Shown: positions 343 through 48,726 of the stretch, one piece after another | Numbering within the stretch: the first letter of the stretch is position 1 | Layout of the letters: every line of letters begins with the position of its first letter | Assembly: GCA_964621395.1 (NCBI GenBank) | Contig: CAZULS010000002.1 | Coordinates: forward strand, 23,306 to 87,305 | Length of the DNA stretch: 64,000 nt | DNA from: an uncultured Candidatus Saccharibacteria bacterium | GTDB taxonomy: Bacteria > Patescibacteriota > Minisyncoccia > Phycocordibacterales > JACNGX01 | Reading direction: 5' to 3' | Program-made: the position numbers and the translations under genes | The notes under the pieces: generated by a model | The model's input: only the letters and a program-made list of their open reading frames with translations | The model's database searches: none | Told to the model about the DNA's origin: nothing

Positions 343-410
343 AAAGGAATACGAAAAACGCCTGAAGCATGACAGGTCATGCTCGGCCAAGGGGAAAATG
401 AAATATGTAT

Positions 411-7492: not shown

Positions 7493-7614
7493 AAGTATCG
7501 ATAAATATCAGTATAAACTGATGTGAATAATGCTTCTATGGTAGCATAAAGTTGTTATGTTGCGGATAGAGACAAAAGTTGAGGGATGTGGTTATTGGAA
7601 TATGGTGGGGGAAT

Positions 7615-7720
7615 AGGGAAGTTGTTAGTTGGTAGTTTTTAGTTTTTAGTGGGCGCGGCTACGCCGCGCCTTAAGGATAAGAAAAAGTGGCGGCACCGAA
7701 GGTGCCGCCACTTTTTCTTT
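7615..7720. repeat. Composite intergenic repeat module, copy 1
   Basis: gggaagttgttagttggtagtttttagtttttag, then the palindrome ggcgcggctacgccgcgcc, then the hairpin gtggcggcaccgaaggtgccgccac with a T-run. Related modules at 11032-11133, 23992-24050 and 56195-56250. Confidence 0.7.
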
Positions 7721-9178: not shown

Positions 9179-9257
9179 AGAATTACGAATTATGAATAGA
9201 AAAAGTGGCGGCACCTTCGGTGCCGCCACTTTTTTCCATACCCTATCCCATATTCCC

Positions 9258-9395
9258 GTCATCCCGCACTTGATGCGGGATCTCGAGAGAGTGGTTTCGA
9301 AAAGTGGAATTCGGACAAAACCAAAGTTCACCTTTGGTATTCATACCAAAGGTGAACTTTGGTTTTGTAAGATCCCGCATCAAGTGCGGGATGAC
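9258..9395. repeat. ~140-bp compound imperfect palindrome
   Basis: GTCATCCCGCA-CTTGA-TGCGGGAT at 9258-9283, a family-B palindrome at 9317-9366, and the inverted hairpin AGATCCCGCATCAAGTGCGGGATGAC at 9370-9395. Together they form a nested palindrome. Confidence 0.7.
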
Positions 9396-9508
9396 ACTAT
9401 ATATTTCGTTGTTACGCGAGCGCAGCTCGCGCCTGCTTGCCGTTAGGCATACATATTTCGTATTTCATACTCCTAACTAACTTCTAGCTGTAAGCTAAAA
9501 ATGATACA

Positions 9509-10954: not shown

Positions 10955-11031
10955 AGAAATGATAGGTTGGGAGTCAAGAGTGAAGAGTTGAGAGATGAGA
11001 GATGTGGTTGTTGGAGTTTAGCCAAAAGATA

Positions 11032-11133
11032 GGGAAGTTTTTAGTGGGTAGTTTTTAGTTTTTAGGAACGGCGCGCTACGCGCGCCTTAAAGATGAAGAA
11101 AGCGGCGGCACCTTCGGTGCCGCCGCTTTTTCT
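11032..11133. repeat. Composite intergenic repeat module, copy 2 (ends in a terminator hairpin)
   Basis: gggaagtttttagtgggtagtttttagtttttag, then ggcgcgctacgcgcgcc, then gcggcggcaccttcggtgccgccgc with a T-run. Confidence 0.7.
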
Positions 11134-11376
11134 ATTCCTTGCTTTGCCCGAGCATGGCTTACCATGCTTTAAGGTCATCCCGCACTCTTGCCCCGCTCAG
11201 TTTTCCTTTTTCTTGAAAACTGGGGCGTGGGTGATGCGAGATCTTCGAGTTTTTACCATAAAATTGGTAATTTTCGATGAAAATCGAGCTGCCCTTGACA
11301 ATATATATCAATATGGTAGATATATTATAGGAAGTCAAATGAGTAAAATATTGTTAATCTCAAAAAAAGAACAACA

Positions 11377-11973: not shown

Positions 11974-12228
11974 ATGAAAAAAGACATCCATCCCGACTTT
12001 CATACCGATACGAAGGCAACGTGCTCATGTGGCGCGGAATTTTCCGTTGGTTCTACGAAAGACGCGATTTCCATGGAAATCTGCAGCCGGTGTCATCCGT
12101 TTTATACCGGAAAAGAAAAGGTGCTTGATACTGCCGGTCGCGTGGACAAATTCAAGCAACGCATGGCGAAAGCTGCCGCGTCTAAGTCGTCGAAGACGAC
12201 CGACCAAGGAAAGGAAGACAAAAAATAG
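11974..12228 (+). CDS. rpmE: 50S ribosomal protein L31
   Basis: [10 protein letters not shown] start, the Zn-ribbon CSCG...[10 protein letters not shown], and DTAGRVDKF. Confidence 0.9.
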
Positions 12229-13702: not shown

Positions 13703-16129
13703 TTGTATTTTTGTATGTCTTATATTACGAAAGTCTTCTCCGCGCTCACTCTCGTATGTGCTCTGTGTGGTATTGCCTCACTTGCATATGCGCAAGAAGT
13801 GGAGACTGTTGAATTTACCATTGTGGCGGAGGTGTCTGTCTTTGATGCTTCTGTTGTTCAAGAACAGAATACGCTCACAGCGTCATTTATCATTGCCAAC
13901 GGTGCCGATACCGTTCAATCCGACATTCGCTACGGTATGGAGTTATGGAGTGTTTCAGCGCAGCAAGGTGAGGCATCCATTCGCGTCCACACAGCTGTTG
14001 CCGATGAAACGATTGCGCTCGCTCCGGGAGAAGTTCGTGCAAAGGCAATAACTGCCACTATACCAACATCTCTTTCTGGACTCTACAGAGTATCTATTGT
14101 TGCCGAAACATTGAGTGGCATGCCACTGGGACGTACCTCAGCCGGCTTTGTCCAACTGGAGGAGACAGCAGGTGGCAGCACAGTGATTAATCAAAGCACG
14201 TGTTATACGGAAGTTTCCGGTGGCGACACAGCATACTCCACTCGACAGGGTGTGGATGTGACAGCCACAGAAACACTTACCATGACCTGTGACGTAGTCC
14301 ACAGTGGTGGAGACACCACACTCACTCCACTTTTTGTGACCACCGAACGATCACTCTATGGTGAAGAAGTGGGAAGCGATACCGGCACATCAGTATCCCT
14401 TACCGAAGGTGTACAAGAGGTTATCTTCACTATCCCAACTCCTCTAGCTCCTCAGGCATACGATACAACAGTAACTCTTTATGATGCATCGTCTGCTGTG
14501 TCCAACACAGCGAGCATCCACTATGTTGTCCAAGGTGCGAGCGCTACCATCCAAAACATCACGCTTGATAATACAACCTATCAAGAGGGGGACACAGCCA
14601 CTGCATCTCTCTTTGTGACCGGTATTGCCGGTGCATTCCCTGACGCTCGCAATGAAGCAGGGTCACTTTCAAATCCCACTCTTGTCGCCACGCTTGAAAG
14701 CGTATCAGGTATTGCCTGTGCTGAGCCGGTGAGCACCTCCCTTACAGAACTTGAAGTAGAGAACACCGCGTTTGTCGATGTATCATTTGCCGTGACTCGT
14801 ACGTGTCCTGATGCAACCGTTTCTCTCGAAGTGAAGGATGATTCGGGTGTTTTGGCTTCACATACAGCTGTAACCATGGCGACGCCCGAGGCGGCAGGAC
14901 CCGCATCTGCAATTGCCATTATTGTCTTAGTGGTTATTGCCGGTGTGGTCATCTTTATTGTCACCCGTGCTGACAAGAAGTTGCCGACGGCAGCGATTAT
15001 GATTGTGGTTGTTTCTGCAATGTTTGTGTGGGGAGGAGGTGTCGAAGCATATAAGTACAAGTCAACAAAAGAGAGTATGAAGGTAGGAGGAACGAGTTTT
15101 ACCGCGGTCTTCAAGAGAATTGTCTTAAGCACTACAGATGTTGCGATATTTACACTGCAGGGGAGTATCAACAGAAAAGAATATAATCCTGGAGAGAATG
15201 TGTTGGTTGATGCAAGCATCCGGTCTTCAGTGTGTAACAACACATCTTCCGAAGTGGGCATGGGCTGGGCCGTCAATGAAGGTGAAATCAGAGGATTGTT
15301 TACTCAGACGATTGATAATAGTGATACAAAAGGATATGGATGTCAAAACTCGGCAGGGTGGTGTAATATTCATGAGACGGCAGCTTTTGACCAATATTTA
15401 GTCCCGAGCCCTGGTGAGCACAATGCACGATTTGCTATCACAGGATTTGCGCTCCATGAAGATACAGGACACAAAGAGACAATTATAGGCAATATTCTTA
15501 TTCCTTTCACCGTTATTGCACCGCCAGATCCTGTTGCCTCTCTCAACGCTCAACCCAACATTGTCTTTGAAGGAGATAGCACCCTTCTCACATGGACATC
15601 TGCAAATGTGGCTTCCTGTGTGGCAGAATCCAATCCTCCGGTATCCGGTTGGGAGGGAAGCGTTACCGCTGATATGCAAGACAGCATGATTGTTGGTCCG
15701 TTGGCGCTTGTCGATCCGCCGGTGTATCTCTTCTCGATTTCATGTATTAACGATGAGAATGAAATTGTCGAAGACTCTGTTCAAGTGTTCGTAGAAGAGA
15801 AAACACTTCCGGAATGTTCTGACGGCGCCGAGAACGACGGCGACGGGTGGATTGATGAGGAAGACCCTGGTTGTATCAATGATGGCATCTATGATCCAAA
15901 TGACGACAATGAAAGCAATGATTCACCGGCATGTTCTGATGGTTCCGACAATGATGATGACAATCAAATAGATGCTGCCGATCCAGGATGTAGTAATGGC
16001 AATGATCCCGATGAATCGGATGAGCCAACGGAACCCGAGGACGATGGTGACGATACTGCAGATCCGGGAGATGGAGGTGATACAGGAGATACTGTCGATC
16101 CTGATGAGATTGACTTCTCGGAGTTCTAA
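13703..16129 (+). CDS. Large cell-surface protein with central TM anchor and Asp-rich tandem C-terminal repeats
   Basis: Signal peptide (likely ATG at 13715), Thr/Ser/Val-rich beta-type extracellular region, two TM helices at ~aa 395-440, and a C-terminal duplicated CSDG-x-NDGDGWIDEEDPGC acidic motif resembling calcium-binding repeats. Confidence 0.55.
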   Translation: MYFCMSYITKVFSALTLVCALCGIASLAYAQEVETVEFTIVAEVSVFDASVVQEQNTLTASFIIANGADTVQSDIRYGMELWSVSAQQGEASIRVHTAVADETIALAPGEVRAKAITATIPTSLSGLYRVSIVAETLSGMPLGRTSAGFVQLEETAGGSTVINQSTCYTEVSGGDTAYSTRQGVDVTATETLTMTCDVVHSGGDTTLTPLFVTTERSLYGEEVGSDTGTSVSLTEGVQEVIFTIPTPLAPQAYDTTVTLYDASSAVSNTASIHYVVQGASATIQNITLDNTTYQEGDTATASLFVTGIAGAFPDARNEAGSLSNPTLVATLESVSGIACAEPVSTSLTELEVENTAFVDVSFAVTRTCPDATVSLEVKDDSGVLASHTAVTMATPEAAGPASAIAIIVLVVIAGVVIFIVTRADKKLPTAAIMIVVVSAMFVWGGGVEAYKYKSTKESMKVGGTSFTAVFKRIVLSTTDVAIFTLQGSINRKEYNPGENVLVDASIRSSVCNNTSSEVGMGWAVNEGEIRGLFTQTIDNSDTKGYGCQNSAGWCNIHETAAFDQYLVPSPGEHNARFAITGFALHEDTGHKETIIGNILIPFTVIAPPDPVASLNAQPNIVFEGDSTLLTWTSANVASCVAESNPPVSGWEGSVTADMQDSMIVGPLALVDPPVYLFSISCINDENEIVEDSVQVFVEEKTLPECSDGAENDGDGWIDEEDPGCINDGIYDPNDDNESNDSPACSDGSDNDDDNQIDAADPGCSNGNDPDESDEPTEPEDDGDDTADPGDGGDTGDTVDPDEIDFSEF

Positions 16130-16253: not shown

Positions 16254-16979
16254 ATGAACAAGACCGTAAGTGTTTCCGATATGTTTAACGCAGGGGCCCA
16301 TTTTGGGTACTCCAAAGCACGCCGTCATCCTTCCATGAAGAAATTCATCTTTGGCGTGAAGAATAAGACCGAAGTCTTTGATCTTGAAAAGACTGCCGGT
16401 TGCCTTTCTGATGTTGAAGCGTATGTTGCCGAGCTTGCCGAAGGTGGTAAAAAGATTCTCTTTGTCGGCAGCAAACCTGAAGCGCGAAAGGTGGTTGAAG
16501 GTGCTGGTAACGCACTCTCTATGCCATATGTGGCATCACGATGGATTGGCGGTACACTTACCAACTTTTCTGAAGTGAAAAAGCGCGTGGCGCGATTGGA
16601 GGAGCTTACCGAGAAGCGTGAAAAAGGTGAACTCTCTGTGTATACCAAAAAGGAACGTTTGCTCTTTGATCGCGAGATTGAAGATCTGGAAGCGCGTTTT
16701 GGCGGTTTGCGTGGTATGAAAGAAATGCCAGCAGCACTCTTTGTTGTTGATCCGAAGGCTGAAGAGATTGCTGTTCTTGAAGCACAGAAAAAGGGGATTC
16801 CTGTCTTGGCGCTTGCATCATCGGATTGTGATGCGAAAGCGGTGAAGTTGGTGATTCCGGCAAACGATTCTTCACGCGGCAGTATCGAACTCTTTGTGAC
16901 CAAGGTTGTAGAGGCGTACAAGAGCGGACAGGGCAAGAAAAAAGAAGAAAAGAAAGAGGAACATACGAATAACGAATAA
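16254..16979 (+). CDS. rpsB: 30S ribosomal protein S2
   Basis: MFNAGAHFGYSKARRHPSMKKFIFG, VASRWIGGTLTNF, and a Lys/Glu tail. The annotated ORF begins at 15972, but the Met at 16254 fits the S2 N-terminus. Confidence 0.9.
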   Translation: MNKTVSVSDMFNAGAHFGYSKARRHPSMKKFIFGVKNKTEVFDLEKTAGCLSDVEAYVAELAEGGKKILFVGSKPEARKVVEGAGNALSMPYVASRWIGGTLTNFSEVKKRVARLEELTEKREKGELSVYTKKERLLFDREIEDLEARFGGLRGMKEMPAALFVVDPKAEEIAVLEAQKKGIPVLALASSDCDAKAVKLVIPANDSSRGSIELFVTKVVEAYKSGQGKKKEEKKEEHTNNE

Positions 16980-17304
16980 TACATTGGGTACGAAGTACGA
17001 ACACATACGAACATACGAAGACTGCTCGCAGTGAGTCACTTGTTGTCATCAAGCACCATACTTTTGACTTCGTGAAGAATATATTCTCTTCAGAAACATA
17101 TTTACTGACAAGCATATTCATTTTCAAACACATAAGTATGGTGCTCGATCCAGGAAACGTACGAAGATTCTGAATCAAGTTCAGGATGACATCGAAAGTG
17201 GTTTATATGTCAAAAATCAGATTCGTATGTTCGTACCAATTCGTAGTTCGTAACTTCTTAATTTCCTAACTTACTAATCTCCTAATTTACTAACGTACTA
17301 TCGT

Positions 17305-17928: not shown

Positions 17929-18402
17929 ATGGACATTGTTCTTCCCATTGCTCTCATAACGGCACTTGCGTGTGTGGAGGTCTGTGCGGCACTTCTCTAT
18001 CGCGGATGGGAATTGTCGCGTGAGGATGTGCCCGAACATATTCACACCCATCGTGCAATGCGCACATATGCCGAAGACAGTGTTGATCGTATGGTTACTG
18101 TCCTTAAGGCTGGTATTGCACGAACATGGCACTCTCATATCATTCCCGCAGGAGTACGTGTGAAAAAAAATATTGTCCGGGCGGCGGCAGACTTTGCCCC
18201 CACGGCATATGTCATGCGAGTGTATAATGCAATTCGTGGACTGCATACAGGACATGAACATGAGGAGGGAGAAAACGCATCGTCATTTCTTCAGGAAGTA
18301 CATGCGCATAAAAATGGAAATACGCATACGTATGAGAAACAGGTTTCAGAAGAACGTGCAGAAGAAAGTAGCAAAAAAGCGGAGGAGCATGACAAGAAGT
18401 AG
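17929..18402 (+). CDS. Hypothetical His-rich protein
   Basis: N-terminal TM helix and multiple His clusters (HTGHEHEEGE, HAHKNGNTHTYE). A metal-binding role is speculative. Confidence 0.4.
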   Translation: MDIVLPIALITALACVEVCAALLYRGWELSREDVPEHIHTHRAMRTYAEDSVDRMVTVLKAGIARTWHSHIIPAGVRVKKNIVRAAADFAPTAYVMRVYNAIRGLHTGHEHEEGENASSFLQEVHAHKNGNTHTYEKQVSEERAEESSKKAEEHDKK

Positions 18403-18524: not shown

Positions 18525-18691
18525 ACAATACAAATGAGAAATACGAAAAATGAAATATGTATAGGTCGCGCTGCCACGCAACCTTGGCGTATATTCTCCT
18601 ATCGATATCATGCCGCATGATATGGGATGGGTACGAAAAGAGCTCACAAAGAAAAGCCCCCTCAGGGGCTTTTCTTTATGGGCCTGGGGTC

Positions 18692-23929: not shown

Positions 23930-23991
23930 TCGCTTACTCCTTTACTTGTCATTCCCAACTTGATTGGGAATCTTCGCGGATGTGGTAAGAA

Positions 23992-24050
23992 GGGCAAGTT
24001 TTTAGTTGCTAGTTTTTAGTTTTTAGCCAGGCGCGGCTTACGCCGCGCCT
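23992..24050. repeat. Composite intergenic repeat module, copy 3
   Basis: agggcaagtttttagttgctagtttttagtttttag followed by ggcgcggcttacgccgcgcc. It is preceded by an ATTCCCAA-CTTGA-TTGGGAAT hairpin at ~23944-23971. Confidence 0.7.
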
Positions 24051-24550: not shown

Positions 24551-24640
24551 CCAAGGTTAAACCTTGGTATTTATACCAAGGTTTAACCTTGGGAGCTCAG
24601 AGCACGAAGATCCCGCATCAAGTGCGGGATGACAGCAGAA
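24551..24640. repeat. Family-B palindrome plus REP-like hairpin
   Basis: ccaaggttaaaccttggtatttataccaaggtttaaccttgg followed by agatcccgcatcaagtgcgggatgac. It is part of a 560-bp repeat-filled intergenic region upstream of gyrB. Confidence 0.7.
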
Positions 24641-24939
24641 AGAAGTATCTTGTCATCCAGCCCCACTTTCACTAATTACCTTTAAATAACACTAGTCGTC
24701 AAAGAGTTCAGCTAACGAAATGTGGTAATCGTACTTAATCAGTGAAAGTGGGGCTGGATCCAGAGCAGAATCAGGTTGGTCGCATATCCTTGTAGATTCC
24801 TGGTCACCAGAGCCCCACCCAGCCCTTTTCCGAGAAAGAGCTGGGTCGAGCTCGGCAGGAGCCGGGAATGACAGCTTATAGATTTTTGTTTTTCCATTTA
24901 TTTTTTATCGTTTATAGTTAACCGTTCATCGTTTTATCC

Positions 24940-27147
24940 ATGCCAGCCAAGAAAGAGACAACCAAAAAAACTGCCGAGAAAACTAAAAAATCAAATGGCT
25001 CGCCTAAACCGTCGAAAACGACGGTCGGCCAAGCCGGACATCATTACGATGCGTCGGATATTTCGGTGCTCGAGGGACTGGAGCCGGTGCGCAAGCGTCC
25101 GGGTATGTATATCGGATCCACGGGCGTGGACGGACTCCATCATTTGGTATGGGAGATTTTCGACAATGGTCGCGATGAGGCAATGGGCGGGTATGCGAAC
25201 CATGTGGAGGTGGTGATTCTGTCGGGTAATCGTATTCGCATCGCTGACAACGGTCGTGGTATTCCGGTGGATATGCACAAAAAGACAAAAGTCTCCGCAC
25301 TTGAAACGATCATGACAACACTCCATGCCGGAGGTAAGTTTGGTGGCGATGGTTATGCGAAGGCTACAGGAGGTCTTCACGGTGTCGGTGCCTCGGTGGT
25401 GAATGCACTTTCTTCGTACACGAAGGTCATGGTGCATCGCGATGGCGGTTTACACATGCAGGAATACAATACCGGAAAGGCGAAAGCAAAGGTAAAGAAG
25501 CTTGGCGCATCAAAAGCACATGGGACGATTGTTGTCTTCCAGCCCGATAAGGATGTCTTCTCCGAAACTGAATTTTCATGGAATAAAATTGTGCAACATA
25601 TTCTGCAACAGGCGTATTTGGTGAAGGGTTTGCGGGTGTCGGCATATGATGCTCGAGAGTACGCGGGGGATGTCGACTTGGAAGGCAAGGACATTCATTT
25701 TGTCTCCGAGCTGGAGCTTGCACTTCCTTCGCAATCATATTTCTTTGAAGGAGGATTGGTGTCGCTTGTGCGTCACAATAATGAATTCCAGAAACCGATT
25801 CACAAGAATATTTTCTTTGTGGAAAAAGAAACGGATGACGGTGTTTCGGTGGAAGTGGCATTTCAGTATGTGGATGATATTTCCGCGCGTCTCTCGGCAT
25901 TTGCCAATTCCACGCCGACGATTGAAGGTGGTATGCATGTGACCGGCTTTAAGACAGCGCTCACACGCGGGCTCAATTCCTATGCGCGAAAGAATAAGAT
26001 TCTCAAGGAGAGTGATGAGAATTTCACCGGTGATGATGTGCTCGAAGGAATCACGGCAGTGGTATCGGTGAAGCTCAAGGAGATTCAATTTGAAGGACAA
26101 ACCAAAGCAAAGCTCGGAAGCGTGGAGGCGCGCGGTGCTGTGGAGACGGTCTTTGGTGAAGCGTTGGGAGAGTTTCTTGAAGAACATCCCGATGACGGCA
26201 AGGCGATTGTGCAGAAGGTGATTTTGGCGCTCAAGGCGCGTAAGGCGGCTAAGGCAGCGAAAGATTCGGTGTTGCGCAAAGGTGCACTGGAAGGCATGAC
26301 ACTGCCAGGGAAATTGGCAGACTGCCAAACAAAAAGTGCCGCAGATTCCGAGCTCTTTATCGTGGAGGGAGACTCAGCGGGTGGTACGGCAAAATCGGGG
26401 CGTGATCGAAAGACACAGGCGATTTTGCCTTTGCGTGGTAAGATTTTGAATGTGGAGCGCGCGCGTTTGGACAAGATGCTTGCCTCCGAGCAAATCAAAA
26501 ATATTGTGGTGGCACTTGGGGCGGCAATTGGTGATGCGCTTGATATGGAAAAACTCCGTTATCACAAGATTATTATTGCAACCGACGCCGATGTCGATGG
26601 TTCCCACATCGACACACTTCTTCTCACACTCTTTTTCCGTTATTTCCGTCCGGTTATCGATGGGGGCTTTCTCTACATTGCCATGCCGCCTCTCTATAAG
26701 ATTAAAAAAGGAAAGGAGGTGTTTTATGCATTCACTGATGCTGATAAGGCGGAGATTTTGAAATCACTGGGCGTGGAAGATATGGAGGAGGCACCGGATT
26801 ATGGCCTAGACTCCTCTCTAGAAGAGTCGGCCAAAGAAGGCGAGGAGAGTGAGGAAGCTGAAGATGAAGGCCTAAACGCCGACAAGTCGGCATCGGCCAA
26901 GGAAGAGCCTGAAGCAAAGAAAAAAGCTGGCAAAGTACACATCCAGAGGTATAAGGGTCTCGGTGAAATGAATCAAGACGAGCTTTGGGAGACGACCATG
27001 GATCCGGAGAATCGACTTCTCAAACAAGTGACCATTGAAGACGCTGAAGAAGCAAATCGTGTCTTCGACACCCTCATGGGCACCGACGTATCCTCTCGCA
27101 AAACCTTCATCCAAAACAATGCAAAGTACGCAAATATCGATGCGTAA
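24940..27147 (+). CDS. gyrB: DNA gyrase subunit B
   Basis: GHKL ATPase region (LEGLEPVRKRPGMYIGSTG), Toprim region (EGDSAGG), and the C-terminal QRYKGLGEMN motif. An acidic ~45-aa insertion before QRYKGLGEM contains the in-frame palindromic element at 26870-26907. Confidence 0.93.
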   Translation: MPAKKETTKKTAEKTKKSNGSPKPSKTTVGQAGHHYDASDISVLEGLEPVRKRPGMYIGSTGVDGLHHLVWEIFDNGRDEAMGGYANHVEVVILSGNRIRIADNGRGIPVDMHKKTKVSALETIMTTLHAGGKFGGDGYAKATGGLHGVGASVVNALSSYTKVMVHRDGGLHMQEYNTGKAKAKVKKLGASKAHGTIVVFQPDKDVFSETEFSWNKIVQHILQQAYLVKGLRVSAYDAREYAGDVDLEGKDIHFVSELELALPSQSYFFEGGLVSLVRHNNEFQKPIHKNIFFVEKETDDGVSVEVAFQYVDDISARLSAFANSTPTIEGGMHVTGFKTALTRGLNSYARKNKILKESDENFTGDDVLEGITAVVSVKLKEIQFEGQTKAKLGSVEARGAVETVFGEALGEFLEEHPDDGKAIVQKVILALKARKAAKAAKDSVLRKGALEGMTLPGKLADCQTKSAADSELFIVEGDSAGGTAKSGRDRKTQAILPLRGKILNVERARLDKMLASEQIKNIVVALGAAIGDALDMEKLRYHKIIIATDADVDGSHIDTLLLTLFFRYFRPVIDGGFLYIAMPPLYKIKKGKEVFYAFTDADKAEILKSLGVEDMEEAPDYGLDSSLEESAKEGEESEEAEDEGLNADKSASAKEEPEAKKKAGKVHIQRYKGLGEMNQDELWETTMDPENRLLKQVTIEDAEEANRVFDTLMGTDVSSRKTFIQNNAKYANIDA

Positions 27148-27267
27148 GTCTTGAAAAATGAAAAACGAAATATGAAATACGTATACAGCCGCGGACCCTT
27201 TGGGCCCGCGACTGCTCATGAATTGATTTTTACGAACGAGAAGATTCGTGCGTATATTTTTGTCTTA

Positions 27268-27987: not shown

Positions 27988-28174
27988 GAGAAAAACGATT
28001 AACTATTAACGATAAACTATACACGAATGAGTGTCGTTTCTGACGTAACGAGAAACTCAGGGTTTTGTACATGATGTTTGCATTAGTCCTTGACCCCGCA
28101 TCACCAAGCTCCATTTTCACTAAAGTGAAAAAAGTGCTCGGCACAGAGTGCGGGATGACAGCAGTATAAGTATA

Positions 28175-29023: not shown

Positions 29024-29102
29024 TAGATTCCCGCTCGGAGGCGGGAATGACAGCAAACAGACTGAAAAAGTAACCACTGTCATCCCGCACTTGATGCGGG
29101 AT
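29024..29102. repeat. Pair of REP-like hairpins
   Basis: gattcccgctcggaggcgggaatgac at ~29024-29051 and gtcatcccgcacttgatgcgggatct at ~29078-29102, preceded by the hairpin ctggcttgaaccccaagccag. Confidence 0.7.
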
Positions 29103-29112
29103 CTCGCCATAT

Positions 29113-30969
29113 TTACTTCGCTTCTTTAGGTTTCTGTGCGCGGTTTTCAATTTCTTCTTTCAGACGCGCAATGAGATCGCTTTCGGAGAGTTCGCCGATT
29201 TTATCAGCATCACGAGATTCGAGGGTTACGCCACCGCTCGCCACTTCCGCGTCACCGATGACGGCAAAGTACGGCACCTTTTCGGTCTTCACGGCACGAA
29301 TCTTTTTACCAAGCGTTTCATTGCTCTCGTCGAGGATTGCACGAACGCCCGCTTCTTTTAGCACATCGAGGATATGTGCTGCATGTTCTTTGTGTGCATC
29401 GGCAATCGGCAGAATACGAATCTGCTCAGGAGCGAGCCAGAGCGGGAATTTCCCGGCGGTGTGTTCAATGAGAACTCCCATAAAGCGTTCCATAGAGCCA
29501 AACGGCGCACGGTGAATCACGACCGGACGATGCTTTTCACCGTTCTCACCAACATACGTAAGGTCAAAGCGCTCAGGCATCACATAATCTACCTGCACGG
29601 TGCCGAGTTGCCATTCGCGACCAATAGCGTCGCGTACGATGAAGTCGATTTTGGGTCCGTAGAAGCTCGCTTCACCAACGCCAATGAAGTATTTGATGCC
29701 CATTCTGTCTGCCGCTTCTTTCACATCTTTTTCCGCCTGCTTCCACACATCAGCGGTCCCCCCGTATTTATCCTGATTTTCTGGATCGTGGAGCGAGAGG
29801 CGTGTCTGTACATTATCAAAACCGAGTGTCTTGAATACAAAGTGCGTCAAGTCAACGGCATTACAGATCTCATCTACAAGCTGATCAGGGCGACAATAAA
29901 TGTGTGAGTCGTCTTGTGTGAAGCCGCGCGCGCGAGTAAGTCCGTTTAATTCACCCGATTGTTCATGACGATAGACGGTACCAAACTCTGCAAAACGGAT
30001 CGGCAAGTCGCGATAACTCTTGGGTGATGAATTGTACATTACATGATGGTGAGGGCAGTTCATCGGTTTCAAGAGATATTCTTCTTCTTTGCCGGTGTCG
30101 TCCACATAGGTGAGCGGAGGAAATTGTGAATCGCTGTAGTACGGATAGTGGCCAGAACAACGATACAAATCAAGATTACCGATATGTGGTGTATATACAG
30201 GCACATAACCACGTCGCTTTTGCTCCGCGCGGAGGAATTCCTCGAGTTCAGTTCGTATGATGGCTCCATTCGGAAGCCACAGCGGAAGTCCTGAGCCGAC
30301 TTCGGGTGAGAGAAGGAAAAGACGCATCTCTTTACCAATGACACGATGGTCGCGTTTCTTCGCCTCTTCCATGAATACAAGATACTCGTCAAGCACCTCT
30401 TTATTCTCAAATGCCACGCCATAGATGCGGGTGAGCATGTCGTTCTCCTCACTTCCTTTCCAGTATGCTCCGGCAATTGCAGAAAGGGAAAAGCTCTCCG
30501 GATCGATATCGGAGCTTGTCTCCACATGCGGACCGGCACACAAATCAACAAAGTCGCCACTTTCGTAGACAGTTACATCGCGACCCTCTTCTTCATATTC
30601 ATCGATGAGTTCGAGCTTGTAGGGATTGTCAGCAAAAAGCGCGCGGGCTTCTTCAGCGGAAACAGCTCTTTGTGTGAACGGAAGATTTCCTGAAATGAGC
30701 TTTTTCATCTCTTTCTCAAGAGAGGGGAGTGATTCGGGAGTAATGCTCACACCTTCCGGAAAAGCGAAGTCGTAATAAAAGCCATTATCAATCGCCGGAC
30801 CCATGCCGATTTTCGTGCCCGGATACTTTTTCACTACTGCCGCCGCCAAAAGATGGGCGAGTGAATGACGTGATGTTTCAAGGGGTATTGGGGTATTCAT
30901 ATAATAGAAACGATAAACGATAAACGATAAAAAGTAAAGCAGGACAATAATAAAAAAAACCGGCATCAT
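29113..30969 (-). CDS. thrS: Threonine--tRNA ligase (no N-terminal TGS/editing extension)
   Basis: Class II core with MNCPHHHVMY and FGTVYRHEQSGELNGLTRARGFTQDDSHIY, plus an anticodon-binding domain. The true start is probably the internal Met at ~30900 (MNTPIPL). Confidence 0.92.
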   Translation of the reverse strand: MMPVFFIIVLLYFLSFIVYRFYYMNTPIPLETSRHSLAHLLAAAVVKKYPGTKIGMGPAIDNGFYYDFAFPEGVSITPESLPSLEKEMKKLISGNLPFTQRAVSAEEARALFADNPYKLELIDEYEEEGRDVTVYESGDFVDLCAGPHVETSSDIDPESFSLSAIAGAYWKGSEENDMLTRIYGVAFENKEVLDEYLVFMEEAKKRDHRVIGKEMRLFLLSPEVGSGLPLWLPNGAIIRTELEEFLRAEQKRRGYVPVYTPHIGNLDLYRCSGHYPYYSDSQFPPLTYVDDTGKEEEYLLKPMNCPHHHVMYNSSPKSYRDLPIRFAEFGTVYRHEQSGELNGLTRARGFTQDDSHIYCRPDQLVDEICNAVDLTHFVFKTLGFDNVQTRLSLHDPENQDKYGGTADVWKQAEKDVKEAADRMGIKYFIGVGEASFYGPKIDFIVRDAIGREWQLGTVQVDYVMPERFDLTYVGENGEKHRPVVIHRAPFGSMERFMGVLIEHTAGKFPLWLAPEQIRILPIADAHKEHAAHILDVLKEAGVRAILDESNETLGKKIRAVKTEKVPYFAVIGDAEVASGGVTLESRDADKIGELSESDLIARLKEEIENRAQKPKEAK

Positions 30970-34810: not shown

Positions 34811-35023
34811 GGTGGGGTAAGTATAGCATATGAGCTTATAGCTTTTAGCTTGTAGCTTAGAGGATGTGGTTGTGTATTTTCTCCACTGTCATCCTACACT
34901 TGATGCGGGAATCTTCGCTAATTTCCGAAAGGACGGACCTGTCTGCAAAGTCTGAAAAAGTGTGGTGTAATATTTCCAAAATCTCGTTTGTCCCTGCTTA
35001 TGTATCCGTAGTACAATACAGAT

Positions 35024-38731: not shown

Positions 38732-38744
38732 CATCTATGATGTC

Positions 38745-38822
38745 ATCCCGCACTTGATGCGGGATCTCGTAATTTTTTGCACATACTCTCTTTATCTGGA
38801 TTCCTGGTCAAGCCAGGAATGA
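38745..38822. repeat. Pair of REP-like hairpins
   Basis: gtcatcccgcacttgatgcgggatct and ggattcctggtcaagccaggaatgac. Confidence 0.7.
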
Positions 38823-39555: not shown

Positions 39556-39718
39556 ATCAATGCCACTTCTCTTTCAGAAAAAAGAGAAGTGGCATTGATC
39601 GGTCAGAGGAAGAGTAAACTTGCCGTCATTCATTTCATACTTGATGCGGGATCTAAAAATAAAAAAACCAAAGAAAACACAAAACACTGCGAGCATGTAT
39701 GCTCGCAGTGTTTTGTGT

Positions 39719-39924
39719 TCCCAACGCCCTCTCTTGTCATTCCGGCCTCCGAGCCGGAATCCAGGGTCTTGTGCATATTATTTATGTCTGACTGGATTCT
39801 GAATCAAGTTCAGAATGACAAGTTATTACTTTCCACTGTCATTCCCGCCTCCGAGCGGGAATCTTCACAGAATCATCCTCAGAGGTTAGCTTGGGGAGAT
39901 CCCGCATCAAGTGCGGGATGACAC
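39719..39924. repeat. BIME-like cluster of four REP-like hairpins in alternating orientation
   Basis: GTCATTCCGGC-CTCCGA-GCCGGAAT (+), ATTCTGAA-TCAAG-TTCAGAATGAC (-), GTCATTCCCGC-CTCCGA-GCGGGAAT (+), AGATCCCGCATCAAGTGCGGGATGAC (-). A gcaacgcgatcatgaatgaccgcgctgc terminator-like hairpin follows at ~39945-39972. Confidence 0.75.
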
Positions 39925-40064
39925 AAAATAGAGTATAGAAAAAGCAACGCGATCATGAATGACCGCGCTGCTTTCTGTGCCGTTGACATACAGAGTGTAT
40001 AATGCTTAACTAACTATGGTCCTAAAAAGTTGTTTCAGGTTTAATCCAAAAGGAGAAGAGAACG

Positions 40065-40661: not shown

Positions 40662-42914
40662 ATGCTGAAATCGATTGAGGTGCAGGGGTTTAAGTCGTTT
40701 GCGAAGAAGAGCGAGCTTGAATTCTCCGCACCTATTTCTTGTATTGTGGGGCCCAACGGTTCCGGAAAATCAAATGTCACCGAGGCGCTGCGCTTTGTCT
40801 TGGGTGAGCAGTCTATGAAATCGCTTCGCAGCAAACGCGGAGAGGATTTGATTTGGAGCGGGTCGCAGGGGGCGCCGCGTTCGGGACGAGCGAGTGTGGA
40901 GATTGTCTTTGATAATACAAAGCGCATGTTTGATATGGATTTCGATGAAGTGTCGCTCAAACGCGTGGTCTCACGCGACGGAACAAACGAATATTTTGTG
41001 AATGGCTCGGCGGTGCGCCTGAAAGATGTGATGGAGCTTCTCTCCTCAGTGCATGTGGGCGCGTCCGGGCATCATATTATTTCCCAAGGAGAGGCGGACC
41101 GTATTTTGAATACATCGGCGAAAGAGCGTCGCAATATTGTGGAAGATGCGCTCGGTTTGAAAATTTATCACTTCAAGATTGCCGAGAGCGAAAAGAAGCT
41201 CAAGAAAACAGAGGAGAACATGAAGGAGGTGGAGGCTTTGCGAAGAGAGATTGCGCCTCATATGCGTTTCCTCAAAAAGCAGGTGGAGAAGGTGGAGAAG
41301 GCTCAAGAGCTTCGAGAAAAGCTCCGCGGACTCTATGTGGAGTATCTCAAGCGTGAGTCGCTCTATCTTGCGCATGCCGGAGATGAATACGAAACAAAAA
41401 AGAAAGAGCTTTCTCACAAACTTGAAGCGGTGGAGAAACGCATTGCCGAGGCACAAGCACGCATTGCCGGCCAAGAGAAGGGAGAGGACGTGGAGGATAC
41501 GTCAAAGCGATTACAGCTTGAAGAGGCGGTGAAAAAAGCACGTGAGAGAAAGGAGGTGGCGGGCAAAGAGCTCGGGCGCATTGAAGGTATGCTTTCAATT
41601 ACCGAAGGGCGTATTGCGCGTGCTGAAAAAGAGACCTATCATCCCGTGAGTCACGAATCAGTAACGCGTTTTCTTGATGGATTAGAGGAAGCGCTGAAAG
41701 ACACGAGCGACACCAGTATGCTCGGACGTATCCTCATGGATGTGAAAAAGCGCATTGAAGATTTTCGCTCGTCGGTCGTGAGCGAGAGTAAGGAAGCGGA
41801 AATTGCTGCTGCCGCCGAAGAGAAGGTGCGATTGGAGACAGAGCGAAAGGAAGCACATGATTTCTTTGAACACGCGGGAAACGATGAAGACGCGGCGCGG
41901 CGCGCACTGGCCGCTTACGAACACGAAGTAGCGGAAGAGAAAAGCGCATCACACACTGCCGAAACGGAACTCTATGCGTATCGCGCGGAAAGAAACGAGA
42001 TTTCTGCACAGATGGCACGTGTGGAGGACACTCTGGCGCGTATTGAAAAAGACTCGCACGTCTTTGAAGAAGAGATTCGTGAAGGCATGGTGCTCATTGG
42101 CGGTGCTATTCGAGATTTTGATACGTATGTATGTGATGAGACAGAAGCACTGAATGAAGCGCGCGAGGCCCAGGAGGATCGCCGTCGCAGTATTGAGCGT
42201 ATTAAGATTCGCTTAGAGGAGACAGGGGTTGGCGGGGGAGAAGACGTGCTGAAGGAATACGAAGAGACAGCAGAGCGCGATGGATTCCTTGCTTCACAGC
42301 TCGGTGATTTGGAAGAGACAGCCACATCACTTCGCACACTTGCAGCTGAGTTGGAGGCAGAGCTTGATACGGCGTTTAAGAGTGGTTTGGAGAAAATCAA
42401 TGAACAATTCAATACCTTTTTCACGCTTATGTTTGGTGGGGGAAATGCCGCACTCAAACTGGTAAAAATGGAAAAGCGCAAGAAGAAAGATGAGGAGATT
42501 GATATTGATATGGATAATATGGACGGAAGCCTAAACGCCGACGAGTCGGCGTCGGCCGAGGAGGGAATCGATATTGCGGTGTCGTTGCCACGAAAGAAAA
42601 TCCACGGACTGCAGATGCTCTCAGGTGGGGAGCGTGCACTGACATCTATTGCACTCATCTTTGCCATGTCGCAGATCAACCCGCCGCCGTTTCTCGTCCT
42701 TGATGAAACGGACGCGGCACTCGATGAAGCCAATTCGCGCCGCTATGGCGACATGCTCGAGAATCTTGCAAAGCATTCCCAGCTTATTGTGGTGACCCAC
42801 AATCGCGAGACGATGTCACGGGCAGGTGTGCTCTACGGTGTGACTATGGGATCCGACGCTGTTTCTCGCCTCATCTCAGTGAAGCTCGAAGAAGCTGCGG
42901 CGTATGCGAAATGA
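40662..42914 (+). CDS. smc: SMC-family chromosome-segregation-type ABC ATPase (short coiled coil, 750 aa)
   Basis: N-terminal IEVQGFKSFA...GPNGSGKSN, long coiled-coil middle, ABC signature LSGGERALTSIAL, Walker B/D-loop FLVLDETDAALD. It contains the in-frame palindromic element at 42529-42566. An extended -10 TGcTATAAT lies at 40638-40646. Confidence 0.8.
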   Translation: MLKSIEVQGFKSFAKKSELEFSAPISCIVGPNGSGKSNVTEALRFVLGEQSMKSLRSKRGEDLIWSGSQGAPRSGRASVEIVFDNTKRMFDMDFDEVSLKRVVSRDGTNEYFVNGSAVRLKDVMELLSSVHVGASGHHIISQGEADRILNTSAKERRNIVEDALGLKIYHFKIAESEKKLKKTEENMKEVEALRREIAPHMRFLKKQVEKVEKAQELREKLRGLYVEYLKRESLYLAHAGDEYETKKKELSHKLEAVEKRIAEAQARIAGQEKGEDVEDTSKRLQLEEAVKKARERKEVAGKELGRIEGMLSITEGRIARAEKETYHPVSHESVTRFLDGLEEALKDTSDTSMLGRILMDVKKRIEDFRSSVVSESKEAEIAAAAEEKVRLETERKEAHDFFEHAGNDEDAARRALAAYEHEVAEEKSASHTAETELYAYRAERNEISAQMARVEDTLARIEKDSHVFEEEIREGMVLIGGAIRDFDTYVCDETEALNEAREAQEDRRRSIERIKIRLEETGVGGGEDVLKEYEETAERDGFLASQLGDLEETATSLRTLAAELEAELDTAFKSGLEKINEQFNTFFTLMFGGGNAALKLVKMEKRKKKDEEIDIDMDNMDGSLNADESASAEEGIDIAVSLPRKKIHGLQMLSGGERALTSIALIFAMSQINPPPFLVLDETDAALDEANSRRYGDMLENLAKHSQLIVVTHNRETMSRAGVLYGVTMGSDAVSRLISVKLEEAAAYAK

Positions 42915-42966
42915 TTTTGAAATATGAAGAACGAAATATGAAATATGTATAAAACAGAGCAATCTT

Positions 42967-43047
42967 CTCCTCCGTCATCCCGCACTTGATGCGGGATCTC
43001 GAGCAAGTGCTTTCATAAAATAAGATTCCCGATCAAGTCGGGAATGA
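42967..43047. repeat. Pair of REP-like hairpins
   Basis: gtcatcccgcacttgatgcgggatct and gattcccgatcaagtcgggaatgac. Confidence 0.7.
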
Positions 43048-43127
43048 CAAAAAATAGAAAAAGAAAAAGGCGCGATGTTCCTTCAGGAACATCGCGCCGT
43101 CTCGATTTTCGCGGTACCATATTATAT

Positions 43128-43514
43128 ATGAAACATATTTCACCAGTATTTTCGATAATCATTATTGGTCTTGTTGTCGGATATGTACTAACCGACTTTG
43201 TCTTCATTGGAGATTGGACATATCTTTTCATTGTTCCCTCGTTATTCGGTATCGCAGTTGTTTTGGCGCAGAAAGGAAATCGCAGTATTGATTTTCTAAA
43301 ATACTTGGCGATAGGGTCTATGTTGTTCGGTGTGTTCATGCCAGCTCTTCATTATGGGAAGATGTGGTATTTGTATAGCGAAAAGATGAGCATGACGTTT
43401 GATATGATGATAACACAAAGCGTCATGCCAACAGTTTTTTATTTTACAACCGTAAGTTTTATTGCGGGACTTCTCGCTATTGTTGCGCGAGGATTTTGGG
43501 GTATGAGGAAATAA
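43128..43514 (+). CDS. Integral membrane protein, hypothetical (4 TM)
   Basis: ATG at 43128 (MKHISPVF). The annotated upstream extension to 43044 lies in repeats. Followed by REP-like hairpins at 43514-43540 and 43567-43591. Confidence 0.45.
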   Translation: MKHISPVFSIIIIGLVVGYVLTDFVFIGDWTYLFIVPSLFGIAVVLAQKGNRSIDFLKYLAIGSMLFGVFMPALHYGKMWYLYSEKMSMTFDMMITQSVMPTVFYFTTVSFIAGLLAIVARGFWGMRK

Positions 43515-43678
43515 TATGGTGTCATTCTGAACTCGATTCAGAATCTATCCCGATGTTGTCTTTAATGACGAAGATTCCGCATCAAGTGCGGAATGACAGA
43601 GAATAGAAAAAAGAAAAAGGCGCGATGTTCCCGAAGGAACACCGCGCCTTTTGGCTTGAGAAAGTAAAAACCCGGCAA

Positions 43679-44401
43679 TTATGCGCCGGGCTTTGCTCGT
43701 TTCTTAAACGTTTTCACATCTGCATGACCAGACACCAGTGCGACCGGCAATGATGCGAAGAATGCCACAAACGGTGTTGCAATGAACGTTTGGGTTGTGT
43801 TCCATTTGTGCCATACGTCCCCGAGACAGAAGAGTGTAAAAATACTCACTCCAATGGTGCCAACAAGGTGAACGGTCTCCTTTGTAAACACCTCTGTATC
43901 ATCACCAACAGCAAGAAAGAATCCGAAGAGACACAGACCAATGAGCTGAACATAGTGTACTGCCGTTGTTATTATCTCGCTGCACAGAAAGATAATACTC
44001 GCAATGACAAGGATAACAAGGGTCCCTATTGTCATACATTTGTCATTGAGGAACGTTGGATACATCTTTGTGTCTTGGAATAATCTTTTCGATGCCGCAA
44101 CAAGAAAGAGTGGTTGCACAAATATGTATTGCGCTTCTCCATGTGCGAAATACGTGTAGAGAAAGATTGAGAAGAACATGAGTGCAGCCAAAACAACAGA
44201 TACGCGCATCTGTGTTCTGTCTTTTGTAATCAAATAGTTGACTGCCAGTACATCCGCGAGGATATAGAAGACAGAAATGAGAACGAATTCCGTTTTGTTC
44301 CCTGTGACATCAAGTGACAGCGCGATAGTGAGTGAAATGATGAAGAAAGGAGCTGTCAGAATTTGGAGACGATACGGCTCCAGTGCTTTTGGTAATGACA
44401 T
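43679..44401 (-). CDS. Integral membrane protein, hypothetical (~7 TM)
   Basis: Hydrophobic multi-helix ORF. Confidence 0.45.
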   Translation of the reverse strand: MSLPKALEPYRLQILTAPFFIISLTIALSLDVTGNKTEFVLISVFYILADVLAVNYLITKDRTQMRVSVVLAALMFFSIFLYTYFAHGEAQYIFVQPLFLVAASKRLFQDTKMYPTFLNDKCMTIGTLVILVIASIIFLCSEIITTAVHYVQLIGLCLFGFFLAVGDDTEVFTKETVHLVGTIGVSIFTLFCLGDVWHKWNTTQTFIATPFVAFFASLPVALVSGHADVKTFKKRAKPGA

Positions 44402-44551
44402 CGTCTTCTGGTTTTAGTGTGATTGAAGGTACAGGTATTGGCGTATAGTAATCATTATTTGATTGATATGCAAGCAAAAAGCGCGGGCGTATGCCCGCGC
44501 TTTTTACTGTCTCTTGCAAAGCCACATTACCTATTTTCTAATTCCTAACTT

Positions 44552-46732: not shown

Positions 46733-47269
46733 ATGTTAAAAATACGTTTACAACGCGTTGGCCGTAAACATGACCCGTCTTTCCGCGTGGTGGTGACGGA
46801 TTCTCGTTTCGCTGCTCAGAGTGGTAAGGCGCTTGAAGTACTCGGTTCATATAACCCGCGTTTCGATAACCCAACACTCAAAGAAGATCGTATCAAGGAA
46901 TGGATTGCCAAAGGTGCGCAGACATCCGGTACGGTACACAACATCCTCGTTGGCGCAGGTATTATTGAAGGGAAGAAGGTGAATGTGCTCCCGAAGAAGG
47001 CACCGATTAAGAAGGAGAATGAAGACCAAAACGCCGACGAGTCGGCATCGGTCAAGGAGGCAGAAGCGGAAGCTCCGGTGGCGGAAGAAGCATCGTCTGA
47101 GACACCAGCTGACCAAAATTCCTCTGAAGAGGAATTGGTCAAGGAAGAAGCTGCACCTGAAGCTCTAGCTGAAGAGAAGGCAGAAGAGACATCTCAAGAA
47201 GAAGCACCAACTGAAGCTGAAGCATCTGAAGATGCACCGGCTGAAGAGGAAGAGAAGAAAGAAGAGTAA
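46733..47269 (+). CDS. rpsP: 30S ribosomal protein S16 with long acidic C-terminal extension
   Basis: MLKIRLQRVGRKHDPSFRVVVTDSR S16 core. The ~90-aa Glu/Ala-rich tail contains the in-frame palindromic element at 47025-47062. Confidence 0.88.
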   Translation: MLKIRLQRVGRKHDPSFRVVVTDSRFAAQSGKALEVLGSYNPRFDNPTLKEDRIKEWIAKGAQTSGTVHNILVGAGIIEGKKVNVLPKKAPIKKENEDQNADESASVKEAEAEAPVAEEASSETPADQNSSEEELVKEEAAPEALAEEKAEETSQEEAPTEAEASEDAPAEEEEKKEE

Positions 47270-48219: not shown

Positions 48220-48594
48220 TTGTTGCATATATACCATATGGAAGCAGATCAAGCTTTTTTGGAGTTTGTTGTAAAGGCGATTGTTGACAATCCGGACGCT
48301 GTGAAGGTCGATCGTAAGACCGACGACATGGGCGTTCTTCTCACTCTCGATGTCGATCGTGAAGACATGGGTAAGGTAATTGGAAAGAGCGGAAACACCG
48401 CAAAGTCGATTCGTACGCTCCTCCGCGTTGTGGGCATGAAGAATGACGCACGCGTAAACCTTAAGATTGAAGAACCTGTTGGCGGTCTCCGCGACACCGG
48501 TAGCTACGGTGGGGGAGAAGCTCCGGCAGGAGACAGTGCTCCGTCTTCAGCAGCGGCAGATCTCGACGCTGCAATGGACGCACTCAAGGACTAA
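48220..48594 (+). CDS. KH-domain RNA-binding protein (YlqC/UPF0109-like), part of the rpsP-trmD operon
   Basis: KH GXXG loop in VIGKSGNTAKSIRTLL, and the conserved position after rpsP. Confidence 0.75.
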   Translation: MLHIYHMEADQAFLEFVVKAIVDNPDAVKVDRKTDDMGVLLTLDVDREDMGKVIGKSGNTAKSIRTLLRVVGMKNDARVNLKIEEPVGGLRDTGSYGGGEAPAGDSAPSSAAADLDAAMDALKD

Positions 48595-48650
48595 AGCGAC
48601 TAAAAAAGAAAAAAATCCTATAACATTGCCAAGGTAATGTTCGGATATAC

Positions 48651-48726
48651 AAAAAAGTGCCCAAAAGGGCACTTTTTTGCAGCACATAAGAACACACGCG
48701 CAAGCTAAAGCCTGCGCGTGTGTTCT
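48651..48726. terminator. Two consecutive terminator hairpins at the left boundary of the AT-rich island
   Basis: aaaaaagtgcccaaaagggcacttttttgc and gaacacacgcgcaag-ctaaag-cctgcgcgtgtgttc. Confidence 0.6.

Follow-up and report, generated by a model that had tools for sequence, protein, structure and literature searches.

Short stem-loop repeats inside and directly behind genes of a Yonathbacteria lineage, probably copied as nucleic acid

The 64,000-nt stretch of contig CAZULS010000002.1 (assembly GCA_964621395.1) analysed here, and called the window below, carries a palindromic element of about 36-42 nt in frame in three unrelated genes: gyrB, a gene for an SMC-like ATPase, and rpsP, which encodes ribosomal protein S16. 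Further copies of this element lie in the same window and in its relatives. We consider it likely that all of them form a family of short stem-loop repeats, of the kind of repetitive extragenic palindromes (REPs) and the Rickettsia palindromic elements (RPEs), that was copied as nucleic acid into the transcribed DNA of a Yonathbacteria lineage. The repeat is a nucleic-acid element and its peptide is a passenger, because copies are mosaically present among relatives, because in one lineage the palindrome was gained in spite of peptide loss, and because synonymous sites are conserved. The closest named homologues of the GyrB and SMC proteins belong to Candidatus Yonathbacteria, a lineage of the Candidate Phyla Radiation (CPR/Paceibacterota), in agreement with the CPR-type host proposed earlier from the sequence. 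CPR genomes are among the smallest and most streamlined, and dispersed repeats that enter essential genes are unexpected there.

Results

Copies of the element in the window

The 29-nt core of the element (AACGCCGACRAGTCGGCRTCGGYCRAGGA) has three exact matches in the window, without mismatches, at 26875-26903, 42534-42562, and 47030-47058 (+ strand in each case); no match appeared in any of 100 dinucleotide-preserving shuffles of the window. These matches, the translations of the copies (Table 1), and the Pfam assignments of their host genes agree with the original prediction, which described three copies, more than 85% identical to one another, lying in frame in linker or tail regions of gyrB, the SMC-like gene, and rpsP. 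The SMC copy is placed about 22 residues N-terminal of the LSGGE signature motif, and the first rpsP copy recurs, identical, in relative L100 (17428-17469). The copies are not an assembly artefact because they are present in independent NCBI, ENA/TARA, JGI, and Logan assemblies.

The three intragenic copies first described are real, but there are more than three, and some lie outside genes. At least eight window copies share one 42-column frame, their inner stems differing from copy to copy yet staying complementary; the first three and a further four (gyrB copy A and N-terminal tail copy, rpsP copy 2, and the copy at 356-397) align in it without gaps; at least four stem types (I-IV) occur in this single register. 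In total the 64 kb hold 8 solid and 3 marginal copies. What had been described in gyrB as a partial copy at 26823-26847 and an adjacent ctaga-n6-tctag hairpin also exists, but the two jointly make up one full-length copy (copy A). Its inner stem (ACTCCTCT/AGAAGAGT) is unlike that of copy B; it reads GLDSSLEESAKE (z -2.4), and is found in relative L089 as well. The second rpsP copy has an orthologue in L100 (17515-17556).

The element is used in three sense frames: an acidic one in the linkers or tails of GyrB, SMC, and S16; a basic, Ser/Thr-rich one in the N-terminal tail of GyrB and probably in the tail of ribosomal protein L31; and one that supplies the stop codon at the end of the RNase R gene in a relative. 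The GyrB N-terminal copy reads SPKPSKTTVGQ, and 0.05 matches to its pattern are expected by chance; in the closest relative (L089, 10059-10100) the palindrome is kept while the flanks fit the frame less well (E 0.09). Copies also lie in 3' untranslated regions (UTRs). All intragenic sites are length-variable, low-complexity linkers or tails, which upholds the earlier view that tolerant sites are colonised; those of types I and II are purine-rich tracts of GAR codons. The extragenic copies stand right behind stop codons (position 356 of the window; 18174 and 14924 of L100). In the DNA of the clade that was examined (about 250 kb in total), intragenic copies outnumber extragenic ones.

Among the extragenic copies, that at 356-397 begins 14 nt past the stop of a cupin-domain open reading frame (ORF; 1-342) and just ahead of a terminator hairpin (409-444), and that at 11137-11179 is followed on the minus strand by a terminator (11131-11095). 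Three candidates are marginal. The probable copy in the L31 tail is so when taken alone (E 0.15 and E 0.07 in two covariance-model searches), and has an exact 17-mer (AAGTCGTCGAAGACGAC) in common with the gyrB N-terminal tail of relative L093. The possible third rpsP copy has an orthologue in L100 (17607-17646) that reaches E 1.6e-4 with a model, R2, whose training set contained the window copy. The possible copy at 48612-48655 lies in the 3' UTR of a gene for a KhpA-type KH-domain protein (48220-48594); at the same place, 3' of KhpA, lies a clear copy in relative L100, its stem being different.

Table 1. Copies of the element, their host genes, and a second palindromic family, in window coordinates
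Feature	Position	Strand	Details
gyrB linker copy B, type I	26866..26907	+	reads GLNADKSASAKE; inner stem CGCCGAC/GTCGGCA; clamp GGCC/GGCC
SMC-like gene copy, type I	42525..42566	+	reads SLNADESASAEE; 8-bp perfect palindrome ACGCCGAC-GA-GTCGGCGT
rpsP (S16) C-terminal tail copy 1, type I	47021..47062	+	reads DQNADESASVKE; clamp GACC/GGTC
gyrB linker copy A, type II	26800..26841	+	flanks GGCCTAGAC...TCGGCCAAAGAA, same 36-nt register as copy B
rpsP tail copy 2, type II	47108..47149	+	GACCAAAAT-TCCTCTGAAGAGGAA-TTGGTCAAGGAA; inner stem 8/8 paired; reads DQNSSEEELVKE; z -3.6
gyrB N-terminal tail copy, type IV	24998..25039	+	inner stem ACCGTCGA/ACGACGGT; z -3.6
Intergenic copy, type III	356..397	+	inner stem AGCATGAC/GTCATGCT, 8/8 paired
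Intergenic copy, type III	11137..11179	-	inner stem AGCATGG/CCATGCT; 23.4 bits, E 3.5e-4
Probable rpmE (L31) C-terminal tail copy, type IV	12176..12214	+	stem GTCGTC-GAA-GACGAC; 3' flank CGACCAAGGAA
Possible weak third rpsP tail copy	47212..47251	+	stem GCATC-TGAA-GATGC; marginal, 14.1 bits, E 0.11
Possible KhpA 3' UTR copy	48612..48655	+	stem AACATTGCC-AA-GGTAATGTT; clamp TCC/GGA; marginal, E 0.12
Host gene gyrB, 735 aa	24940..27147	+	Pfam GyrB; three element copies
Host gene, SMC-like ATPase, 750 aa	40662..42914	+	Pfam SMC_N
Host gene rpsP (S16)	46733..47269	+	Pfam S16; true start about 46733
Second palindromic family, part 1	9256-9312, 9370-9417, 17165-17212, 24608-24655, 28147-28164, 29077-29133, 34882-34916, 38740-38796		
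Second palindromic family, part 2	39617-39651, 39795-39820, 39832-39866, 39897-39944, 42972-43028, 43023-43070, 43572-43619		

Two of the host proteins have peculiarities of their own. S16 ends, at its C-terminus, in an acidic extension of about 100 aa, which cannot be aligned with the tails of Yonathbacteria S16 proteins, and the SMC-like protein has head domains at both ends in a total of only 750 aa.

Structure, covariation and orientation

The element folds into a two-tier hairpin. A 4-bp clamp of the GGCC/GGCC type, or a derivative of it, encloses TAA, an inner stem of 6-8 bp with a purine loop of 2-4 nt, and one unpaired C; AAGGAR follows 3' of the clamp. The hairpin unit amounts to 30 nt. 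In an alignment of 18 copies, the structure ...((((...((((((((..)))))))).))))......... has 88.9% of its stem cells paired, against 15-39% for control structures slid along the same copies; changes on both sides occur at 10 of the 12 pairs, a number reached by none of 500 shuffles. With the 12 type I copies alone, double changes are seen in 6 of the 12 pairs, and again no shuffle out of 500 did as well. We did not count the GACC/GGTC changes of the outer clamp as structural evidence, because they can be explained by deamination of 5-methylcytosine (m5C) in GGCC. The stems contain 10 G.U cells and 14 A.C mismatch cells, the asymmetry between the two serving as a test for pairing at the RNA level.

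A covariance model built on the 18 copies, in which gyrB copy B scores 58.7 bits as a member of the training set, was then searched on the window and its relatives for untrained copies. It recovered the minus-strand copy at 11137-11179 of the window (E 3.5e-4) and two copies in L100: one at 18174-18215 (E 8e-5), directly 3' of the KhpA stop, and a minus-strand copy at 14924-14965 (E 0.009), which lies at the 3' terminus of an RNase R gene on that strand. In this last copy the TAA of the element is the stop codon of the gene; the window lacks the insertion. Two Yonathbacteria genomes (89 kb) gave the gyrB and SMC copies only.

Every copy with an identified host transcript is in sense orientation, including two that lie behind minus-strand genes, and no head-to-head dimers were seen. 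Since the GC skew is positive over the whole window, orientation tracks transcription better than it tracks replication.

Presence and absence in relatives

Alignment of GyrB, SMC, and S16 with insert-free orthologues places presence and absence of the copies at exactly these sites. The GyrB of L089 (P0001), 94% identical to that of the window, lacks the copy B segment, leaving a 57-nt gap with AGGA microhomology on both sides, while P0003 and P0005 (77-79% identical) have the segment; P0004, the sister of P0003, is shorter by exactly 30 nt, i.e. by the hairpin unit. The SMC copy is missing in the protein of L100 (P0122, 92% identical), in P0125, P0127, P0128, and P0132, and in every orthologue of at most 55% identity; it is present in six orthologues (P0123, P0124, P0126, P0129, P0130, and P0131). 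The rpsP copy is missing in the S16 genes of two Yonathbacteria relatives. Taken by genome, the result is a mosaic: the window has the element in all three genes, a TARA relative has it in S16 but in neither gyrB nor SMC, one Yonathbacteria genome has it in SMC only, and another has it in gyrB and SMC but not in S16. In neighbour-joining trees of GyrB and SMC computed without the linker, alleles with and without the copy alternate between sister tips, and all outgroups are without it. This pattern is most simply explained if each gene received a single old insertion that was then lost independently, at least four times in SMC and at least two times in gyrB, or if alleles were exchanged by recombination. 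The gyrB and SMC insertions are shared by clades with SMC proteins no more than 62% identical, and are old rather than recent jumps.

Two SMC orthologues whose proteins are 62% identical agree in 10 of the 11 codons of the element; outside it, only 41% of the codons agree where the residue is the same (Fisher p 0.001). Synonymous sites are thus unusually conserved inside the element, and other comparisons gave similar results. The gyrB copy of P0002/L093 has followed another course. Its peptide has diverged to PNTDKSVLD, while the palindrome, through six substitutions, has become perfect over 11 bp (CCAATACCGAC-AA-GTCGGTATTGG; z -3.4). The SMC copies of L105 and L106 are decaying in peptide and stem alike, and retain 4-bp stems. 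The earlier claim that a DNA element is concerned, rather than a protein motif, is supported by the use of other frames and the untranslated copies, by presence and absence between sisters, by covariation of the stems, and by this decay of the peptide with gain of the palindrome. Orthologues that bear the peptide keep conserved DNA with it, and the similarity reaches beyond the first three copies to others in the window and in relatives; neither of the two outcomes named beforehand as contradicting the claim was therefore observed.

Database searches and rejected origins

An exact-pattern scan of 185,579 species genomes returned 88 hits; all were due to chance and came from GC-rich genomes, with no CPR genome among them. 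A degenerate 26-mer scanned against JGI metagenomes found one related gyrB lineage and otherwise two chance hits only, and a scan of viral contigs for the element found nothing. At the protein level, a profile search of 1.8 billion representative proteins with the peptide motif gave no hits; an X-padded profile of the motif also yielded no candidates, though a local test had predicted significance. In Rfam only tRNAs reached the gathering threshold in the window, and two copies gave sub-threshold, terminator-driven matches in relaxed scans. Full-text literature searching found no description of such repeats in CPR.

Several other origins were rejected. The window has no tmRNA gene from which the peptide could derive as a tag. 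A parS-like or origin-proximal DNA site does not agree with a GC skew that is positive throughout, with neither origin nor terminus in the window, and a binding site evolved by point mutation would not come as a discrete insertion. Pasting of HaeIII fragments between GG^CC cuts predicts an insertion of 26 nt; the observed units are 30 and 36 nt.

Discussion

Proposed mechanism and points against it

In the mechanism that we propose, the unit would be copied as nucleic acid into transcribed DNA, always in sense, either just past stop codons or inside genes. Inside a gene it would survive only where harmless, that is, with a length that is a multiple of three and within a tail that is disordered or a linker of variable length. 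Its frame would be matched to local composition: acidic GLNADESASAKE in acidic linkers, basic PSKTT in basic tails, and TAA only at the end of a gene. The stems would stay paired through two-sided changes, by selection for the hairpin or by a template-switch 'correction' of quasi-palindromes. Loss would be repeated, GA-rich microhomologies probably giving rise to slippage across the hairpin, and such loss would lead to the mosaic of presence and absence among sister lineages. That the copies are translated and near-neutral is our inference, and so is the manner of their spread. If REPs are a guide, the agent would most likely be a hairpin-recognising HUH/Y1 transposase, similar to the REP-associated tyrosine transposases (RAYTs), encoded elsewhere in the genome.

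Several observations weigh against this interpretation. Neither a transposase nor another mobilising gene, Y1/RAYT included, was found among the 30 window ORFs scanned against Pfam. No direct repeats or target-site duplications are visible around any copy compared, the filled and empty sites included. Only one exact 30-nt indel is available, in gyrB (L091 versus L094), the remaining comparisons of filled and empty sites being messy; and nothing in the relatives compared could be shown to be a recent transposition, the copies of gyrB and SMC being old and orthologous across clades. The family is narrow in public genomes and metagenomes by exact-pattern scans, with the element found only in one related gyrB lineage. 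As to structure, the covariation at 10 of 12 pairs is not a fully blind statistic, because four copies other than type I had entered the alignment by flank similarity, and the clamp variants GACC/GGTC are what m5C deamination should make of GGCC in a genome that has a HaeIII-type system. Finally, strict sense orientation and conserved unpaired bases would equally fit a selected RNA signal.

Alternative explanations

That signal might be cis-acting, e.g. a binding or processing site for a protein or RNase, a stabiliser of 3' ends, or an element for ribosome pausing, recruited in 3' UTRs as well as in coding regions. We regard this as possible though somewhat doubtful; it overlaps with our own interpretation, in that it bears on why the copies persist and not on their nature. 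It would account for the sense-only orientation of copies with identified host transcripts, even for the two behind minus-strand genes, for stems that covary while the unpaired TAA, C, and AAGGAR stay conserved, for the conservation of synonymous sites across SMC orthologues 62% identical in protein, and for the placing of UTR copies between stop codon and terminator. Many REPs are likewise argued to function as RNA elements (PMC3733652). The copies are dispensable, however: sister lineages do without those of gyrB and SMC, two Yonathbacteria S16 genes do without that of rpsP, and the L105 and L106 copies have decayed to 4-bp stems. With 10 cells, G.U pairs have no advantage over A.C mismatches (14), so that a specific sign of RNA pairing is lacking, and no Rfam family matched. 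Ribosomes would moreover unwind hairpins inside ORFs, and gyrB, SMC, S16, and the cupin gene have no common regulatory logic. Quite unlikely, in our estimate, is a lineage-specific system at the RNA level in place of passive selfish DNA, in which the hairpin would be read by a dedicated RNA-binding or processing factor, working also inside coding regions, or in which the repeat would spread in a transcription-coupled or RNA-templated way; the grounds for it would be the strictly sense orientation, the conservation of the unpaired TAA, C, and AAGGAR, and that of the nucleotides between deep orthologues.

Dedicated mobility could also be dispensed with altogether. The copies would then have been distributed by rare ectopic events, either template switches or gene conversion, that joined acidic low-complexity tracts rich in GA, and by local tandem duplication in gyrB and rpsP; template switching at quasi-palindromes would have maintained and reshaped the palindromes. 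Template switching is known to create and maintain hairpins and to homogenise the arms of inverted repeats in coding DNA (PMC8794818, PMC8604942). The intragenic sites of types I and II, all purine-rich GAR-codon tracts, offer microhomology; the tandem copies share gene-specific flanks (GGCCTA..GGCC in gyrB, GACCAA..GGTC in rpsP); and the lack of a transposase among the window ORFs and of a target-site duplication falls into place. But GA-rich microhomology is absent at other sites of the element, namely AT-rich 3' UTRs and a basic N-terminal tail, the ends of the copies are discrete and reproducible with a constant unit length at unrelated loci, and replication-based template switching does not predict sense-only orientation; we judge this explanation unlikely. 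Conservation of the peptide itself, (G/S)LNAD(E/K)SAS(A/V)(K/E)E, as a short linear motif (for instance a docking or modification site) gained by proteins that handle nucleic acids, appears highly improbable. One peptide does recur in three proteins and in the orthologues of two clades, but the same element is read as PKPSKTTVGQ in the N-terminal tail of GyrB and as a stop codon in RNase R, and is untranslated in the UTRs. The peptide would need much less conservation of codon choice than is seen, the L093 copy alters the peptide while perfecting the palindrome, and the motif is missing in sister lineages and had no hits among the representative proteins.

Comparison with known repeat systems

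Our preferred reading, a family of stem-loop repeats copied as nucleic acid, has its nearest parallel in the REPs. By Di Nocera et al. (2013; PMC3733652), these are described as units of 20-40 bp, mostly just 3' of ORFs, with subfamilies that differ by alternative complementary stem residues; intragenic REPs are often in replication or repair genes, in flexible linkers or at termini, and sometimes occur twice per gene. The element is REP-like in being a stem-loop of such size with stems of 6-9 bp and very short loops, in having subfamilies with alternative complementary stems in a constant frame, and in that its extragenic copies lie near the 3' ends of ORFs, where they are probably transcribed; REPs, too, have copies in frame inside genes (a minority of all), replication and repair genes among them. 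Unlike the REPs described there, type I-III copies have no terminal GTAG/CTAC or CGTC/GACG tag at either end, CGTC being confined to type IV stems and, on the opposite strand, to the loop region of some type I copies. Further differences from that description are the two-tier hairpin with its GGCC-type clamp, the strictly sense orientation, the excess of intragenic over intergenic copies in the window, and the lack of a RAYT among the window ORFs scanned. CPR is not among the phyla named for REPs in the available text of that paper.

The original prediction likened the element to an RPE. This is right as to behaviour: it is a palindromic repeat of a reduced genome, placed in frame in housekeeping genes unrelated to one another, encodes a conserved peptide, is predicted to be translated, is tolerated at non-critical protein sites, and is present outside ORFs as well. 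The element is a behavioural analogue of the RPEs and, by its unit length and lack of a CGTC tag, not a member of the RPE families; its 'selfish' and 'mobile' character is presumed. Classical RPEs measure about 150 bp and are frequently in frame (PMC10969869). Going by PMC10969869 and PMC3733652, a unit of 36-42 nt sets the element apart from the 100-150 bp or so of the RPE-1 type. The short Rickettsia elements RPE-4 and RPE-6 belong to the CGTC-tagged REP superfamily according to PMC3733652; compared with them, our element lacks the CGTC tag, occurs in a different phylum, and is a single element in three frames.

Quasi-palindrome template switching (PMC8794818, PMC8604942) accounts for the perfection of a palindrome by several bases in one step, as in the L093 gyrB copy, and for stems that stay paired without stepwise selection. 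It is, by contrast, a kind of mutation that needs an inverted repeat to be there already, and offers no means of scattering a unit of fixed ends over loci that are unrelated. MITEs, the miniature transposable elements with inverted repeats at their termini, derive these from an insertion sequence, have target-site duplications, and typically measure 70-500 bp; the present unit is smaller, has no flanking direct repeats, and has no related insertion sequence in the window. A further parallel is found in the G+C-rich palindromic clusters of yeast and other mitochondria: like the element, these are GC-rich hairpins of 30-50 nt in an AT-rich compact genome, polymorphic between strains, and occasionally in frame and translated (var1). 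They differ in being organellar and mostly placed in AT-rich spacers, with mobility proposed to proceed via gene conversion, and have no sequence relationship to the element.

Being inside genes and behind them is behaviour already known from REPs and RPEs; what is added is the occurrence in this bacterial group, for which no earlier description was found. One nucleic-acid element appears here to be filtered by selection into the frame that suits the protein context, be it acidic, basic, or a stop, and it explains part of the lineage-specific insertions in GyrB, SMC, S16, and probably L31. Its presence/absence polymorphism in marker genes such as gyrB and those for ribosomal proteins may disturb alignments and strain typing, or may itself serve as a strain marker. 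Discovery of a mobilising enzyme, or of a function at the RNA level, would extend biology of the REP/RAYT type to a new part of the bacterial tree.

GGCC depletion, restriction and other repeats

GGCC is the most depleted 4-mer palindrome of the window (72 sites observed against 161 expected), followed by GATC, and both depletions hold across the clade (L089-L102). Of the 72 GGCC sites, 7 (about 10%) are inside copies of the element, which cover some 0.5% of the DNA. Because the clamp consists of two GGCC sites although the genome is strongly depleted of them, the RNA-level system regarded above as quite unlikely might further be linked to GGCC-specific restriction-modification pressure in this clade. 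The window encodes a HaeIII-type restriction endonuclease (E 3e-97; 48882-49862), a C5 cytosine methyltransferase (49865-50842), and an AAA_15/SMC_N ATPase (50847-52784), clustered in an island of low GC content (38-40%) at about 48-54 kb; the TARA relative has PemK and DpnI-like genes at this position.

Other repeats are present besides. A second family of palindromes, intergenic and more abundant, occurs in both orientations (GTCATCCCGCACTTGATGCGGGATCT and its complement; Table 1). Its constant frame is GTCAT..CTTGAT..ATCT, within which the stems vary between copies and stay complementary; a half-copy adjoins the element at 11137-11179. A motif of about 50 nt (TTGAAAWATGAARAACGAAATATGAAATAYGTATA) lies directly 3' of the gyrB stop (27151-27200), the SMC stop (42917-42966), and a tRNA-Thr gene (18536-18585), with related sequences at 395-414 and 39925-39944; it may represent a promoter common to these places or a further family of repeats. 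A 60-nt intergenic repeat with TAGTTTTTAGTTTTTAG at its end (family D2) has four copies, at 7590-7649, 11006-11065, 23967-24026, and 56169-56228, and similar TTAGRA repeats stand behind the RNase R stop (about 44520-44550). Sizeable ORFs without a Pfam match at E <= 0.001, one of them of 808 aa, are located at 13703-16129, 16325-17014 (minus strand), 43044-43514, and 43679-44401 (minus strand). In the Yonathbacteria relatives, the beta subunit of phenylalanyl-tRNA synthetase has a match to the NLPC_P60 peptidase domain (L091 4173-6584, L094 6877-9237, and L095 6556-8913).

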